Source: Bacillota bacterium
GTDB taxonomy: Bacteria > Bacillota > Sulfobacillia > JAJYWN01 > JAJZPE01
Length of the DNA: 64,000 bases
Direction of reading: 5' to 3'
Assembly: GCA_021787335.1 (NCBI GenBank)
Contig: JAJYMC010000049.1
Coordinates: forward strand, 14,053-78,052
Part shown: positions 58,589 through 63,920 of the stretch, piece by piece
How the letters are laid out: the number at the start of each line of letters is the position of its first letter
Numbering within the stretch: position 1 is the stretch's first letter
Notes under the pieces: generated by a model
Told to the model about the DNA's origin: nothing
Seen by the model: only the letters and a program-made list of their open reading frames with translations
The model's database searches: none
Made by a program: the position numbers and the translations under genes

Positions 58589-58797
58589 ATCTCTTATCCA
58601 GAGAGGTGGAGGGACCGGCCCTATGAAACCTCGGCAACCATCCGTAGTCCCCGGCTTCCATCAGGCCGGCGGGCGGGGAAATGGTGCCAACTCCGACAGG
58701 GCGCCCACGGGCGTCCTGGAAGATGAGAGGGGGCAATAGCGCCGCGTTTTTCGTCGTGGGCTCAGACCTCTTCCATCGTGAAGAGGTCTTTTCATTT
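58589..58797 (+). promoter_or_regulatory. SAM-I (S-box) riboswitch with terminator-type expression platform
   Basis: ctcttatccagagaggtggagggaccggccctatgaaacctcggcaacc ... ggtgccaactcc ... ggaagatgagag matches the SAM-I consensus. Terminator gacctctt-ccatcgtg-aagaggtc + ttttcattt at 58765-58797. Confidence 0.85.
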
Positions 58798-58827
58798 ATC
58801 TATCCATGGTGACGAGGGGGAATCCGC

Positions 58828-60072
58828 GTGTCCTATGTCAGGGGGCTCCGCTGCCGGGAGTGCGGGGCGACCTACCCGGTGAGCCCGGTCAGCATCTGTC
58901 CGGAGTGCTTCGGGCCGCTCGAGGTAGACTACAACTACGACGCCATGCGCCAGGCGATCAGCCGTTTCTCCATCGAGTCGGGGCCGGCGACGATGTGGCG
59001 CTACCGGTCGTTCCTGCCCATCGACGGGGACCGGGTGATCGACCTCGGCACCGGCTTCACGCCGCTGATCAAGGCCGACCGGTTGGGCAAGGAGCTTGGC
59101 CTGAAGCGGCTTTATGTCAAGAACGACGCGGTCAACCCGACCTACTCCTTCAAGGACCGAGTCGTCAGCGTGGCCGTCTCGAAGGCCCTCGAGTTCGGCT
59201 TCGACACGGTGGCCTGCGCCTCCACGGGCAACCTGGCCAACTCGGTGGCCGCCCACGCCGCCCGGGCCGGGCTGAAGTGCTACATCTTCATCCCAAGCGA
59301 CCTGGAGCTGGGCAAGGTCCTGGGGACGATGATCTACGAGCCCAACGTCATCACCGTCCGCGGCTCGTACGATGAGGTCAACCGGTTGTCCAGCGAGGTC
59401 GCCGACCGCTACGGATGGGCCTTCGTCAACATCAACCTGAGGACGTTCTACTCCGAGGGCTCGAAGACGCTCGCCTACGAGACCGCCGAGCAGCTCGGCT
59501 GGACCCTGCCGGGCCAGTACGTCTCGCCCATCGCCGGGGGCTCGGTGCTGACCAAGATCGCCAAAGGCTTCGGCGAACTGCTCCGCCTGGGACTCGTCCA
59601 GGGACGCGAGCCGAAGGTCTTCGGGGCGCAGGCCACCGGCTGCGCGCCGGTCGCCCGGGCCTTCAAATCCGGCGCCGACGTCATCACCCCGGTCAAGCCG
59701 AACACCATCGCCAAGTCGCTGGCCATCGGCAGCCCGGCCGACGGCGAGTACGCCATCGCCACGGTCAAGCGGGCCGGCGGTTACATCGACGACGTCAGCG
59801 ATGAGGAGATCGTCCAGGGCATGCGGCTCCTGGCGCGGACCGAGGGCGTCTTCACCGAGACGGCCGGCGGCGTGACCGTGGCCACCTTGGCCAAGCTGGC
59901 CCGGGAAGGGCGGCTGGACCCGGAGGAGGTCACCGTCGTCTACATCACCGGGAACGGCCTGAAGACGATGGAGGCCGTCGAAGGTTCGCTCGGGCAGGCG
60001 CCCGGGGCCATCGCCCCGAAGTTCGAGGAGTTCGAGGGGAGAATCCGCGCCCTGGCCGTCGCGCCGGCCTGA
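58828..60072 (+). CDS. Threonine-synthase-like PLP enzyme with N-terminal Cys4 zinc ribbon (MetM-like homocysteine synthase candidate)
   Basis: CRECG...CPEC ribbon, then fold-type II PLP core (SFKDR lysine motif, TGNLANS). Sits behind a SAM riboswitch and before a ThiS-like carrier. Confidence 0.8.
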   Translation: MSYVRGLRCRECGATYPVSPVSICPECFGPLEVDYNYDAMRQAISRFSIESGPATMWRYRSFLPIDGDRVIDLGTGFTPLIKADRLGKELGLKRLYVKNDAVNPTYSFKDRVVSVAVSKALEFGFDTVACASTGNLANSVAAHAARAGLKCYIFIPSDLELGKVLGTMIYEPNVITVRGSYDEVNRLSSEVADRYGWAFVNINLRTFYSEGSKTLAYETAEQLGWTLPGQYVSPIAGGSVLTKIAKGFGELLRLGLVQGREPKVFGAQATGCAPVARAFKSGADVITPVKPNTIAKSLAIGSPADGEYAIATVKRAGGYIDDVSDEEIVQGMRLLARTEGVFTETAGGVTVATLAKLAREGRLDPEEVTVVYITGNGLKTMEAVEGSLGQAPGAIAPKFEEFEGRIRALAVAPA

Positions 60073-60115
60073 GTCCGGCGGCCAGCGGGTGCTTCAACCA
60101 TGGGAGGGTTCCACA

Positions 60116-61350: not shown

Positions 61351-61741
61351 GATCATCGCCCACTGCCGGTCCGAAAGACCGAACGAGGCCTGCGGCCTCC
61401 TGGCCGGACGGGGCGGCCGGGTGCTGCGTGTCTACCCGGCGCGGAACGCCGAGCGCAGCCCGCAGAGTTTCCTCATCCACCCCGATGACCAGCTCAGGGC
61501 GATGTCCGAGATGGAGCGGGACGGCCTGGAGTTCACGGCCGTCTACCATTCCCACCCGACCAGCGACGCGGTCCCCTCGCACCGCGACATCCAACTGGCC
61601 ACCTACCCTGAGGCGCTCAACCTCATCGTCTCATTGAAACGTGAGCCCGTCGTCTGCCGCGCCTATCGGATCGTCGGCGGCCATCAGAGCGAGGTCCCGT
61701 TGGCCATCGAGAAGGAGGCCCCCGATGTCCGGTCGAAATGA
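61343..61741 (+). CDS. JAMM/MPN+ metalloprotease (Mec+/CysO-hydrolase-like)
   Basis: E...HSHP...S..D JAMM motif (EACGLL ... VYHSHPTSDAVPSHRD). ATG overlaps the E1 stop (ATGCGTGA). Confidence 0.8.
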   Translation: MREIIAHCRSERPNEACGLLAGRGGRVLRVYPARNAERSPQSFLIHPDDQLRAMSEMERDGLEFTAVYHSHPTSDAVPSHRDIQLATYPEALNLIVSLKREPVVCRAYRIVGGHQSEVPLAIEKEAPDVRSK

Positions 61742-63020
61742 AGCCATTGCCCGCCTCAAGGACGGCGGGTTCATAAAGCAGCGGCAGGAAGAGTACTTCG
61801 CCGTCCGGGTCCGCGTGGTCGCCGGCAATCTGGAGGCCGAACAGCTTCCCAAGGTCGCCGAGATCGCCAAGCGCTACGGGCGCGGCTACGTCAGCCTGAC
61901 CGTGCGGCAGGGCATCGAGATCCCCTGGGTCCGGCGCGAGGACCTGGAGGCCTGCAAGGCCGAACTGGTCGCGGCCGACCTGGCGGTGGCCGGCTGCGGG
62001 CCGCGCGTGCGGGCCATCGTCGGCTGCAAGGGCAGCGTCTGCCCGTACGGCCTGGTCGACACGCAGGAGCTGGTGAAGGACTGGGACACCCGTTTCTTCT
62101 CCATCTCCGGCTTCCCACACAAGTTCAAGATCGGCCTGGCGGGCTGTCCGAACTGTTGCAGCAAGCCCCAGTTCAACGACGTCGGCTTGATGGCCCGGGT
62201 CGAGCCCGGGTTGGACGCCGAACGGTGCAACGGCTGCGGGCTGTGCGTCAAGGCCTGCGGCGAAGCGGCCATCGACATGGAGGACAAGCTCCCGGTCCGT
62301 GACGCGAGGCGGTGCCTCGGTTGCGGCGACTGCGTGCGGGTCTGCCCGCGCGACGCCTGGCTCCCGGCGCGGACCGGTCTATCGCTCTTCGTCGGCGGGA
62401 AGTTCGGCCGGCACCCGCGCTACGGGCGGCGCCTGGCCGAGTTCATCCCAGCCGAGCGGGCCTTCGAGGCCATCGAGGCGGTCATGGAATACTACCGCCA
62501 GGATGGCCGCCGCGGCGAGCGGCTCTGGGATACGACCGAGAGGGCGGGGCTGGCGGGCCTGAACGAACGCCTGGCCGCCGTGGGCGGTGAGCCGAGCTTG
62601 CCGGACGCGGGTCCCATGGCGACGGTGGCGGACATTGGCAAGGCCGGTCGGGAGGTGGCGACGACGTCGGTCGGTTGTGGTCAGCGGCAGGACAAGCCCA
62701 GCGACACGGAGAACCCCAGCGCGGAGAACCCCAGCGCGGAGAAGCCCGGCGGGAAGAATCCCGTCCCCGCGGATGACACCGCCGGGGTCCCTGTCCTCGA
62801 CCTCCGGGGCGAGCTCTGCCCGTACACCTTCATCCGGACGATGATCGCCCTCGAGGATGTGCCTTCGGGCAGCCGCCTCTTCGTGCTCCTCGACGACGGC
62901 CAGCCCATCCGCGACGTGCCGCGCAGCCTGAAGGGGGCCGGACACGAGGTCCAGCGGATCACGCCCGAGGGACCGACCTTCCGCCTGCTCGTCAAGAAGG
63001 ACGGGGCGCCCCTCAAGTAG
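61725..63020 (+). CDS. Small sulfite/nitrite-reductase-like domain + 2x[4Fe-4S] ferredoxin + C-terminal TusA-like domain, fused
   Basis: NiR/SiR ferredoxin-like half domain and siroheme-type Cys cluster (CGPRVRAIVGCKGSVCPYG...GCPNCC). CNGCGLCVKACG and CLGCGDCVRVCP. TusA CPYTF motif at the C-terminus. Confidence 0.7.
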   Translation: MSGRNEAIARLKDGGFIKQRQEEYFAVRVRVVAGNLEAEQLPKVAEIAKRYGRGYVSLTVRQGIEIPWVRREDLEACKAELVAADLAVAGCGPRVRAIVGCKGSVCPYGLVDTQELVKDWDTRFFSISGFPHKFKIGLAGCPNCCSKPQFNDVGLMARVEPGLDAERCNGCGLCVKACGEAAIDMEDKLPVRDARRCLGCGDCVRVCPRDAWLPARTGLSLFVGGKFGRHPRYGRRLAEFIPAERAFEAIEAVMEYYRQDGRRGERLWDTTERAGLAGLNERLAAVGGEPSLPDAGPMATVADIGKAGREVATTSVGCGQRQDKPSDTENPSAENPSAEKPGGKNPVPADDTAGVPVLDLRGELCPYTFIRTMIALEDVPSGSRLFVLLDDGQPIRDVPRSLKGAGHEVQRITPEGPTFRLLVKKDGAPLK

Positions 63021-63071
63021 GCGAGGCCGCCGAAGCTCTCCGAAGCCAGCGAATGCCAAGGAGGAACCATC

Positions 63072-63920
63072 TTGAACCGGACTGAAGGCCTTCTGAACCG
63101 GACCGAAGGCGCCGCCAGCGCCGAACAGAGAGCCAAGGAGGCCCGCCTGCATCAGGTCCTGGCCGGACTCGGCGGGGCGGTGGTGGCCTTCTCGGGAGGG
63201 GTCGACAGCACCCTGCTCCTGTCCGAGGCCGTCGAGGTCCTCGGCGACCGGGTCCTGGCGGTGACCGCGTCGTCGGAGACCTACTTCCCCGAGGAGATCG
63301 AGGAAGCCAGGAAGCTGGCCGCGCTGATCGGCGCCAGGTTCGAGGTCATCGAGACGTCTGAACTTGAGAACGAGTCCTTCGCCGCCAACCCGTCGAACCG
63401 TTGCTACTACTGCAAGGGCGAGCTCTTCGGGAAGCTCTCCGAGATCGCCGGGCGGGCGGGGCTGGGGATGGTCCTCGACGGGACCAACGCCGACGACGTC
63501 TCCGACCACCGCCCCGGCCGCCAGGCCGCCCGGGAGATCGGCGTCAGGAGCCCGCTCCTGGAGGCCGGCCTGTCCAAGGACGACATCCGGGCCCTGTCGC
63601 GGGCCCGCGGCCTACCCAACTGGGACAAGCCCGCCCTGGCCTGCCTGGCGTCCCGTTTCCCGTACGGCACCCGGATCACCCGGCCCGAACTGGAGCGGGT
63701 GGGCGCCGCCGAACGGCATCTCCGCAGCCTTGGGTTCAACCAGCTCCGCGTGCGGAACCACGGAGAGATCGCCCGCATCGAGGTCCCCGCGCGTGACCTC
63801 GGCCGGCTCCTCGAGGTCCGGGAGCAGGTCGTCGCCAGGCTCAAGGAACTGGGTTTCCTCTACGTCACCATGGACCTTCAGGGTTACCGATCGGGGAGCA
63901 TGAACGAGGCTCTCCGCTAG
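63072..63920 (+). CDS. PP-loop ATP pyrophosphatase (LarE/COG1606-like sulfur transferase family)
   Basis: SGGVDSTLL PP-loop, conserved Cys (CYYCKGELF), C-terminal LarE-like region. Confidence 0.7.
   Translation: MNRTEGLLNRTEGAASAEQRAKEARLHQVLAGLGGAVVAFSGGVDSTLLLSEAVEVLGDRVLAVTASSETYFPEEIEEARKLAALIGARFEVIETSELENESFAANPSNRCYYCKGELFGKLSEIAGRAGLGMVLDGTNADDVSDHRPGRQAAREIGVRSPLLEAGLSKDDIRALSRARGLPNWDKPALACLASRFPYGTRITRPELERVGAAERHLRSLGFNQLRVRNHGEIARIEVPARDLGRLLEVREQVVARLKELGFLYVTMDLQGYRSGSMNEALR

Follow-up and report, generated by a model that had tools for sequence, protein, structure and literature searches.

In Streptomyces albulus, homocysteine is made by MetM, a homolog of threonine synthase (ThrC) that combines O-phospho-L-homoserine with the thiocarboxylate of a small carrier protein, MetO (Hasebe et al. 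2024, Appl Environ Microbiol 90:e01247-24, as recounted in PMC12172450 and bioRxiv 10.1101/2024.10.14.618325), and an S-adenosylmethionine (SAM) riboswitch lies upstream of the S. albulus metM gene (PMC12172450). The GapMind 2026 account of the pathway gives its steps as MetO, Mec, MoeZ and MetM, states that MetM is "often misannotated" as threonine synthase and describes Mec as the hydrolase of the MetO carrier, acting in carrier maturation (bioRxiv 10.1101/2024.10.14.618325). Here we describe a gene cluster in a 64 kb stretch of contig JAJYMC010000049.1, from the metagenome-assembled genome (MAG) of a spore-forming member of the Bacillota; the whole stretch is called the window below. A SAM-I riboswitch precedes genes for a ThrC-like enzyme, a ThiS/MoaD-family carrier, an E1-type adenylyltransferase, a JAMM metalloprotease, a small siroheme sulfite reductase (SiR) fused to a TusA domain, and a LarE-family PP-loop protein, with nadE following (Table 1). 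We think it probable, at about 80%, that the operon is a self-contained version of the MetM/MetO pathway, in which sulfite would be assimilated into homocysteine through a protein thiocarboxylate.

How does this cluster compare with the described systems? With S. albulus it shares a ThrC-homologous enzyme, a ThiS-family carrier encoded directly after it, a SAM riboswitch before it, and the need for a JAMM protease (Mec) and an E1 in carrier maturation and thiocarboxylation. It differs in that the E1 and JAMM genes lie in the same cluster, the rhodanese domain is absent, a SiR-TusA fusion is built in, and the host is a spore-forming member of the Bacillota. Wolinella succinogenes is said to make homocysteine by the HcyS/HcyD/HcyF/MetY thiocarboxylate pathway, reportedly worked out by Krishnamoorthy and Begley in 2011, in which HcyD is said to mature the HcyS carrier. 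The window cluster would resemble it in a carrier C-terminal extension removed by a JAMM protease, an E1, a co-located sulfite reductase as sulfide source, and homocysteine as product. The terminal enzyme of Wolinella, however, is said to be a MetY-type O-acetylhomoserine sulfhydrylase of the Cys_Met_Meta_PP fold, whereas the window has a ThrC paralog that presumably uses O-phosphohomoserine; no MetY-type (Cys_Met_Meta_PP) gene is present in the window cluster, which works like the Wolinella pathway and is not a member of it. The CysO/CysM/Mec+/MoeZ pathway of Mycobacterium tuberculosis shares the same logic: an O-phospho amino acid gives rise to a PLP (pyridoxal phosphate)-bound intermediate of the aminoacrylate type, which the protein thiocarboxylate attacks, and the carrier is acted on by a JAMM protease. 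That pathway differs in making cysteine, with a CysM-type enzyme and a rhodanese-bearing MoeZ, and we know of no riboswitch and no clustered sulfite reductase or TusA there.

Table 1. Features of the cluster and its leader, in window coordinates
Feature	Position	Strand	Basis and remarks
Promoter-like site P1	58530..58558	+	sigma-70-like TTGACT-17-TAGTAT, TG before -10; consensus scan
SAM-I (S-box) riboswitch aptamer	58591..58729	+	Rfam RF00162
Antiterminator (predicted)	58722..58777	+	constrained ViennaRNA folds
Intrinsic terminator of the expression platform	58764..58799	+	10-bp stem (hairpin 58764-58789), then TTTTCATTTAT
MetM-like homocysteine synthase candidate, 414 aa	58828..60072	+	Pfam PALP 235 bits, TIGR00260 299 bits
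MetO-like ThiS/MoaD-family carrier precursor, 106 aa	60115..60435	+	Pfam ThiS 66 bits; start from contig gene call
Internal promoter-like site P2	60410..60438	+	TTGACA-17-TAGTAT, 10/12 positions; overlaps carrier tail and stop codon
E1-type adenylyltransferase (MoeB/ThiF/UbaA-like), 283 aa	60499..61350	+	Pfam ThiF 282 bits
JAMM/Mec+-type metalloprotease, 145 aa	61304..61741	+	Pfam Prok-JAB 80 bits
SiR-TusA fusion, 431 aa	61725..63020	+	Pfam NIR_SIR_ferr, NIR_SIR, Fer4, TusA; start from contig gene call
LarE-family PP-loop ATP pyrophosphatase, 282 aa	63072..63920	+	TIGR00268 342 bits, cut-off 150
NadE, 5' end, cut by the window end	63937..64000	+	source contig L001 10866-11648; frame in window checked

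What sets the first enzyme of the cluster apart from a threonine synthase? It is a ThrC-fold PLP protein with its PLP lysine, K109, in SFKDR, and with an N-terminal Cys4 zinc ribbon (C9/C12/C24/C27, CRECx11CPEC). Solved ThrC structures match it at 178-214 bits, and residues 1-52, which include the zinc ribbon, are covered by none of them. A protein database search with the enzyme gave 8000 relatives at E<=1e-30, the closest of which are 59-68% identical, come from Limnochordia, other Bacillota, Actinomycetota, Cyanobacteria, Chloroflexota, Nitrospinota and Aquificota, and all carry the name "threonine synthase". The zinc-ribbon clade, at 56-68% identity to the window enzyme, extends over more than eight phyla, with members in Cyanobacteria, Chloroflexota, Actinomycetota, Nitrospirota, Nitrospinota, Aquificota, Planctomycetota and Verrucomicrobiota, and the four ribbon cysteines, a CFGPL motif and SFKDR are invariant in an 18-sequence alignment. 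Five loci (L025, L039, L062, L065 and L066) hold, near the zinc-ribbon paralog, a second and weaker ThrC match of 33-41% identity. Because this neighbor in L062 scores 466 bits against the Aquifex ThrC, as a canonical enzyme would, and the window enzyme scores 214 bits, the zinc-ribbon protein is by its sequence a paralog distinct from canonical ThrC and coexisting with it, and it does not group with canonical ThrC by these scores.

The genomic context of the paralog is strongly conserved. A genome scan limited to one genome per species yielded 80 MetM-like loci, 56-63% identical to the window enzyme, mostly cyanobacterial and with none from Streptomyces. A ThiS-like carrier gene follows the MetM-like gene in 72 of the 80 genomes, within less than about 650 bp in 70 of these 72, and the window carrier, whose gene begins 42 bp after the MetM-like gene, is 40-58% identical to the carriers so placed. 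SAM riboswitches lie immediately upstream of the paralog in nine of 11 loci from Chloroflexota and Actinomycetota and in five of seven further loci, among them the closest Bacillota relatives (L091, L092 and L093), a total of 14 among the 18 loci outside the Cyanobacteria. The arrangement of a riboswitch, then a MetM-like gene, then a ThiS-like gene recurs across phyla. The link to S. albulus runs through Microcystis. A Microcystis locus (L031) encodes proteins 62% (enzyme) and 55% (carrier) identical to those of the window, and the Microcystis "ThrC" is reported to share 51.6% identity with S. albulus MetM, and its neighbor 47% with MetO (PMC12172450). This two-step identity, together with the context, would place the ThrC-like enzyme within MetM. 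The window gene has the features expected there: it encodes a ThrC-homologous PLP enzyme with its lysine and stands apart from ThrC, with a carrier gene downstream and a SAM riboswitch upstream. The first-pass annotation of the window had proposed methionine synthesis by a MetM/MetO-type thiocarboxylate route, with a carrier gene right after a zinc-ribbon ThrC-like gene, and the non-canonical ThrC scores and the recurrent gene order both speak for it.

Some of the MetM-like loci have features of their own. In two Nitrospirota loci (L062 9910-10854 and L066 2040-3017) a canonical threonine synthase gene stands right after the MetM-like/MetO-like pair, so that both users of O-phosphohomoserine are clustered. 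In a Chloroflexi MAG the MetO-like gene is followed directly by a T-box leader (L065 7116-7542; 104 bits), and the MetM-like gene there has no SAM riboswitch upstream. The clade also occurs in Acidimicrobiia and Aquificota, as in Acidithrix ferrooxidans (P0252), Venenivibrio (P0109) and a member of the Aquificaceae (L070); Acidimicrobium ferrooxidans and Aquifex aeolicus were singled out in 2018 as lacking every known homocysteine route (PMC5764234).

The leader of the cluster also points to methionine. An Rfam scan of the entire 64 kb window found a single match, a full-length SAM-I aptamer that scores 88.9 bits where the gathering score is 44.4 (E=8e-20, model 1-108). The riboswitch proposed from first reading is thus borne out, and a terminator hairpin follows it. 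The P3 hairpin of this S-box aptamer carries a 29-nt insertion, and the unconstrained minimum-free-energy fold gives aptamer helices P1-P4 plus the terminator, a hairpin of -14.8 kcal/mol. The related locus L091 has a near-identical hairpin after its riboswitch and an equivalent promoter-like site before it. When the 3' arm of the terminator is blocked in constrained ViennaRNA folds, the 3' strand of helix P1 (58722-58733) pairs with the terminator 5' arm (58767-58777), which we infer to be the classic S-box antiterminator of the SAM-free state; the modeled terminator and antiterminator are mutually exclusive, with the helix P1 3' strand common to both. The leader, which is followed by a ribosome binding site (RBS; GAGGGGG, 58814-58820) and a GTG start codon at 58828, thus looks designed as a SAM-responsive transcriptional OFF switch. 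With SAM abundant, the aptamer would keep helix P1 closed, the terminator would form, and metM-metO would not be transcribed; with SAM scarce, the 3' strand of helix P1 would make the antiterminator, and transcription would read through.

The carrier, its protease and its E1 form a coherent set. The carrier sequence runs to ...IIPAIAGG, with the Gly-Gly at G90-G91 (60382-60387), and continues as a 15-residue tail, DTSPAAPVDSPAWGR (60388-60432). Among ten loci with a nearby JAMM gene, nine have carriers with residues beyond the Gly-Gly, the extension ranging from one residue to an 80-residue NIL domain; the cyanobacterial carriers end exactly at Gly-Gly, with no JAMM gene nearby. This co-occurrence fits maturation of the carrier by the JAMM protease. 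In the window protease the HxHx7Sx2D metal site is intact (E28 and H82-S-H-x7-S-x2-D95; HSHPTSDAVPSHRD), and with the tailed carrier this places it with the JAMM/Mec+ type. The E1 has the motifs GTGGLG, CYRC and CAAC. Since its match to the NCBIfam MoeZ model NF005902 (354 bits, cut-off 647) covers model positions 12-280 and stops at 280 of 392, the E1 is by sequence of the MoeB/ThiF type, without the persulfide-carrying rhodanese domain of MoeZ. The earlier label of MoeZ/ThiF-type E1 thus stands for ThiF/MoeB and falls for MoeZ. The NIL domains just mentioned are fused directly after the Gly-Gly of MetO-like carriers in L076 (9288-9803), L086 (9276-9791) and L087 (about 6336-6850), with JAMM and E1 genes nearby; such domains are known as well from the DUF39/NIL-ferredoxin homocysteine pathway, which is unrelated.

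Where would the sulfur come from? The product of the fifth gene begins with a small sulfite reductase of the siroheme type into which a two-cluster ferredoxin is inserted (residues about 1-290; two CxxCxxCxxxC motifs). A linker of some 55 residues, rich in Pro, Ser and Glu (about 291-345), joins this part to a TusA domain at 346-431. The TusA domain matches PF01206 at 66 bits (cut-off 28.6) and carries Cys365 in GELCP (62817-62819). The best solved relatives of the SiR domain, at about 140 bits, are the C-terminal sulfite reductase halves of the F420-dependent enzyme Fsr (7npa/7np8), a similarity that matches the type described as "group III Dsr-LP" or AsrC (PMC3448663). In alignment, R28, R96, K133 and K135 coincide with the four sulfite-binding residues of MjFsr, R61 with the assimilatory-type Arg388, and C101, C106, C141 and C145 with the siroheme-cluster cysteines, the first motif being Cx4C instead of Cx5C (residue roles from PMC10229431). 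The domain is thus, like Fsr-C and AsrC, a siroheme-[4Fe-4S] sulfite reductase with an inserted two-cluster ferredoxin that keeps the four Arg/Lys residues and the assimilatory Arg (PMC3448663, PMC10229431), and by homology it would be a competent six-electron sulfite reductase that releases sulfide. It differs from Fsr in having no F420H2-oxidase half, in the Cx4C motif and in the TusA domain joined through the linker, and its genomic context points to assimilation and not to detoxification.

The fusion is rare, the association is not. TusA is fused in 11 of the 120 best protein clusters (five close relatives and a second group of about 35% identity), and the other SiR homologs are standalone proteins of about 290 aa. 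In all five contigs examined with an unfused homolog a TusA gene lies within the same cluster, in three of them (L174, L175 and L177) overlapping the SiR stop codon, and four of the five also have ThiS/ThiF/JAB genes and MetY-type or MetM-like enzymes. Thus L174 has SiR, TusA, ThiF, JAB and a ThiS::PALP fusion; L175 has SiR and TusA, then thioredoxin and thioredoxin reductase; L176 has siroheme synthesis genes, SiR, ThiS::PALP, TusA and a zinc-ribbon MetM-like enzyme; and L177 has SiR, TusA, a response regulator, ThiF, ThiS, JAB and siroheme synthesis genes. The Thermoanaerobacterium locus L005, with SiR, ThiS, ThiF, JAB, TusA, a MetY-type enzyme, PAPS reductase and CysN, has the window's set in unfused form and is of the Wolinella type. 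The suggestion made at first reading, that the sulfide-generating components are co-located with the carrier module, thus holds as a recurrent association, SiR and TusA being clustered in five of five sampled lineages and the carrier module being with them in four. TusA also appears in other settings: the SiR-TusA slot is taken by a standalone 106-aa TusA without SiR in L091, a close relative with an 82% identical MetM, and a TusA gene follows the E1 in L086 and L087. We note that the ThiS::PALP fusions join a carrier to a CysM-like enzyme, and that they and one ThiS::ThiF fusion are found at L174 8516-9700 and at L176 6867-8009 and 12046 to the locus end.

A second copy of the fusion sheds light on its role. 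In the cluster's assembly (GCA_027372355.1) a paralog 79% identical to the SiR-TusA protein lies directly after cysE-cysK (L006 6369-9203; the CysE and CysK equivalog cut-offs are passed), and no Rfam element was found in the gap of about 800 bp upstream of cysE. We conclude from these sequences that SiR-TusA is probably the assimilatory sulfite reductase of this lineage, duplicated into its cysteine and methionine operons. The CysK-linked paralog and the assimilatory-type active site favor plain sulfide as the product. TusA in turn looks like a conserved partner of two units, the small SiR and the carrier module that lacks a rhodanese domain, and it may relay sulfur to the carrier adenylate, deliver a bound sulfur oxyanion to the reductase, or act in protein docking. 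A mechanism like that of DsrAB/DsrC, with TusA capturing partly reduced sulfur at the siroheme, was considered; R61, the counterpart of MjFsr R388, speaks against it and in favor of a complete, six-electron reduction that ends at sulfide (PMC10229431), and the mechanism survives only as part of the improbable idea below. No described pairing or fusion of SiR and TusA was found in literature searches of a limited library, one of them weakened by the term "ThiS" also matching "this". A bolder idea is that the small Fsr-C-like SiR and TusA form an obligate functional pair, here fused and then duplicated, in which sulfite-derived sulfur passes directly to the Cys of the tethered TusA, or a TusA-bound S-sulfonate is the true substrate, TusA then thiocarboxylating the carrier on the rhodanese-less E1. 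We regard this as speculative and improbable; if true, sulfite would become protein-bound sulfur without a cysteine desulfurase, and might also feed the neighboring [4Fe-4S] LarE-type insertase.

The pathway that we propose would then run as follows. The JAMM protease would trim the 15-residue tail of the carrier, exposing the Gly-Gly, and the rhodanese-less E1 would adenylate the C-terminal glycine. The Fsr-C-like, assimilatory-type siroheme domain of SiR-TusA would reduce sulfite to sulfide with ferredoxin-derived electrons, and the acyl-adenylate would receive the sulfur as sulfide or by way of Cys365 in the tethered TusA, giving the carrier thiocarboxylate (carrier-COSH); the TusA domain would in this way take the place of the missing rhodanese domain. 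The MetM-like enzyme would exchange the phosphate of O-phospho-L-homoserine for the thiocarboxylate sulfur, and the JAMM protease may also free homocysteine from the carrier adduct.

Several considerations weigh against this scheme. Its chemical steps all come from homology to CysO/CysM/Mec+, HcyS/HcyF/HcyD and MetM/MetO. The placement within MetM depends on the indirect, two-step identity argument and on context; a search for a Streptomyces member, seeded with an actinomycete homolog, returned Acidimicrobiia only. The Microcystis homolog reportedly acts as a threonine synthase/deaminase in vitro, and there was no rise in methionine in vivo (PMC12172450). If, as homology suggests, the SiR domain frees sulfide, sulfide could thiocarboxylate carriers without TusA, and the paralog beside CysK likewise points to plain sulfide production. 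The promoter and terminator calls are consensus matches only, and the evidence on thrB, canonical thrC, MetX/MetY and MetB/MetC covers the larger ORFs of the window.

Do the last two genes belong to the pathway? It could be that all seven genes, LarE and NadE included, serve one pathway, the LarE-like enzyme adding a sulfur-mobilizing step such as loading of sulfur taken from TusA, or carboxylate activation; of the alternatives this survives best, and we still hold it to be unlikely. The LarE-like protein has SGGVDS, C111-YY-C114 and C191. It aligns end to end with Lactobacillus plantarum LarE (5udq, 214 bits), CYYC replacing WYYA and the third Cys adjoining the position of the sacrificial Cys176, and its SGGxDS motif and CxxC-C triad are by sequence the signature of the catalytic [4Fe-4S] LarE class. 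The CxxC-C motif has been described for [4Fe-4S]-dependent LarE, and in Thermotoga maritima the class takes sulfane sulfur from a protein donor, IscS, and not from Na2S (PMC9283937), a point in favor of membership. Three related genomes (L001, L008 and L091) share the order TusA, LarE-like gene, NadE, and the LarE-like gene follows at 51 bp with its own RBS and no terminator detected between. In one relative locus, L116, a LarE-like gene has a sulfur-relay context, with Rrf2, TusA, E1, MnmA and a cysteine-desulfurase-like gene.

Against membership, the three syntenic genomes are close relatives, and their synteny is correspondingly weak evidence; the order is kept in them only. A metagenome scan gave 80 LarE relatives of 49-60% identity, whose neighbors were clustered without bias; only 46 of these loci are longer than 5 kb. 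LarB-like genes adjoin 22 of the 80 and LarC-like genes 25, NadE adjoins none, sulfur relay is seen only in L116, and none of the 80 has a clear link to methionine genes. LarB and LarC neighbors mark nickel-pincer cofactor clusters. Conversely, LarE-like hits occur in only two of the 80 MetM-like loci (L088 and L090), 6-8 kb away, and in L092 the Met/Cys cluster stands next to YebC without LarE or NadE. The LarE-like gene was therefore largely rejected as a member of the methionine pathway, since its relatives adjoin LarB-like and LarC-like genes; what had been called a LarE-like sulfur mobilizer keeps its family, and its role there is doubtful. The window protein resembles T. maritima LarE in its SGGxDS PP-loop and CxxC...C triad (PMC9283937), and differs in being paired with NadE after TusA, with no LarB, LarC or LarA gene in the window or within 10 kb on the source contig. 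LarB-like and LarC-like matches were likewise absent from the window and from L001-L093, as were Lar domains from the scanned window ORFs.

NadE, a full-length NH3-dependent NAD+ synthetase of 260 aa (Pfam NAD_synthase 221 bits, TIGR00552 230 bits), starts 16 bp after the LarE-like gene on the source contig. Most likely LarE and NadE are co-transcribed passengers and not pathway members: NadE would be housekeeping and LarE, by analogy, a [4Fe-4S] sulfur insertase for the pyridinium cofactor. That LarE draws sulfur from TusA, or otherwise contributes, seems doubtful to us. As for L116 (719-8021), its gene order is Rrf2 regulator, TusA, NFACT-R_2 protein, E1, MnmA, LarE-like protein, class-V aminotransferase of the cysteine-desulfurase type and hexapeptide transferase, which is neither a lar nor a methionine context.

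A second alternative is that the ThrC-like enzyme is a genuine threonine synthase/deaminase, and that the carrier, E1, JAMM and SiR-TusA form a separate sulfur module for cysteine, molybdenum cofactor, thiamine or tRNA thiolation. The enzyme does score above the cut-off of TIGR00260, a generic thrC model (299 against 167 bits), and comes close to PRK08197 (294 bits, cut-off 303), it conserves the PLP lysine and the STGN loop, and the in vitro activities of the Microcystis homolog are those of a threonine enzyme (PMC12172450). Against this stand the SAM riboswitch directly before the gene, in the window as in 14 of 18 other non-cyanobacterial loci, and the carrier gene immediately after it in 72 of 80 genomes. 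To our knowledge threonine genes are not S-box targets. A canonical ThrC can moreover adjoin the paralog, as in L062 and L066, and the gulf between 214 and 466 bits against Aquifex ThrC separates the two. We therefore consider a threonine synthase very unlikely.

Could the module instead make cysteine in the CysO/CysM/Mec+ style, its PLP enzyme using O-phosphoserine? The carrier, E1 and JAMM share protein families with CysO, MoeZ and Mec+, and the related clusters L174 and L176 hold CysO-CysM-style ThiS::PALP fusions. Yet the enzyme has the ThrC fold, with cysKM models absent from its 25 best NCBIfam matches, control is through SAM and not through a cysteine signal, and the same assembly has a separate cysE-cysK-SiR-TusA locus; we hold a cysteine product to be highly improbable. 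Least credible of all is that the carrier, E1 and JAMM are primarily a ubiquitin-like (sampylation-type) conjugation system and not one of sulfur transfer, for although their best NCBIfam names are SAMP1 (58.5 bits), the SAMP-activating E1 UbaA (331 bits) and desampylase (79 bits), these scores fall under the curated cut-offs of 60, 450 and 130, and the SAM riboswitch, sulfite reductase, TusA and MetM-like enzyme indicate sulfur chemistry.

Returning to the homocysteine operon, how far does SAM control extend? The gaps between successive genes are 42, 63, -47, -17 and 51 bp, each gene has a Shine-Dalgarno-like sequence, and no terminator-like site was found between the riboswitch terminator and the end of yebC. 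There is, however, a second promoter-like site, P2, which is also present in L091. In a three-way alignment of the window, L008 and L091, TTGACAGCC and TAGnnT are kept though the overlapping coding sequence and the tail length differ. The DNA of the carrier's 15-residue tail (window 60388-60438) thus also forms the conserved promoter-like site; the TGA inside TTGACA is the carrier stop codon in L008 and L091, and the window frame reads through it to give a longer tail. A nested layout is probable from these sequences, in which P1 and the riboswitch would govern metM-metO and read-through transcription, and P2 would give E1, JAMM, SiR-TusA, LarE and NadE a basal, SAM-independent expression. Basal expression would suit the essential NadE, and also the E1, which may serve other carriers. 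The first-pass annotation had called the whole a SAM-riboswitch-controlled cluster; this would hold for metM-metO, and sole control from E1 to NadE probably does not, the P2 site being conserved across three relatives. Its six protein family assignments were all recovered, as Pfam or NCBIfam matches with their motifs located.

The cluster looks native, and not recently acquired, because its third-position GC content (GC3) of 0.90-0.94 equals that of the flanking genes; horizontal acquisition was rejected on the same ground, the flanking genes being housekeeping genes. Downstream of NadE the source contig has a promoter-like site and then YebC, BofC, RuvCAB and QueH. The remaining window holds housekeeping and sporulation genes of a high-GC member of the Bacillota (ThrRS, IF3, PheST, MutS2, spore photoproduct lyase, PBP1A, TyrRS, YunB and YtxC), and no further Met, Thr or Lar genes were seen among the larger ORFs scanned in the window. 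Two other regions depart from the GC3 of about 0.9 found elsewhere. Positions 25998-35605 (GC3 0.65-0.89, mostly below 0.8) hold an IS110-family transposase fragment, a P-type ATPase, ArsA, an Acr3-type (SBF) permease, a CCG-domain protein, a DsrE-like DrsE_2 protein and ArsR, and look like an acquired arsenic/metal resistance module with two small sulfur-related genes. Positions 42044-45154 encode a 1036-aa protein with an AAA_11/AAA_12 helicase, a PLD-like nuclease domain and a topoisomerase-type C4 zinc ribbon, and a GC3 of only 0.63 suggests that this gene is foreign or of a defense type.

What does the operon add to the MetM/MetO story? The core pathway was published in 2024 and is included in GapMind, and is hence no discovery. 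Finding the core in another bacterium mainly aids annotation, as thousands of proteins of the zinc-ribbon clade are named "threonine synthase" in public databases. The operon differs from the described systems in having all components together, in the partnership of a rhodanese-less E1 with TusA, and in an Fsr-C-like SiR that is fused to TusA and duplicated between methionine and cysteine operons. It would be a complete and compact design for taking sulfite to homocysteine, and it raises the possibility that TusA takes over from the rhodanese domain when the carrier is thiocarboxylated. Small sulfite reductases of the Dsr-like kind have a poorly defined physiological role in bacteria; they occur with TusA in every sampled lineage, usually together with ThiS, E1 and JAMM, and in the window lineage the two are fused. 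This pairing offers a testable hypothesis for the role of both proteins in sulfur assimilation.

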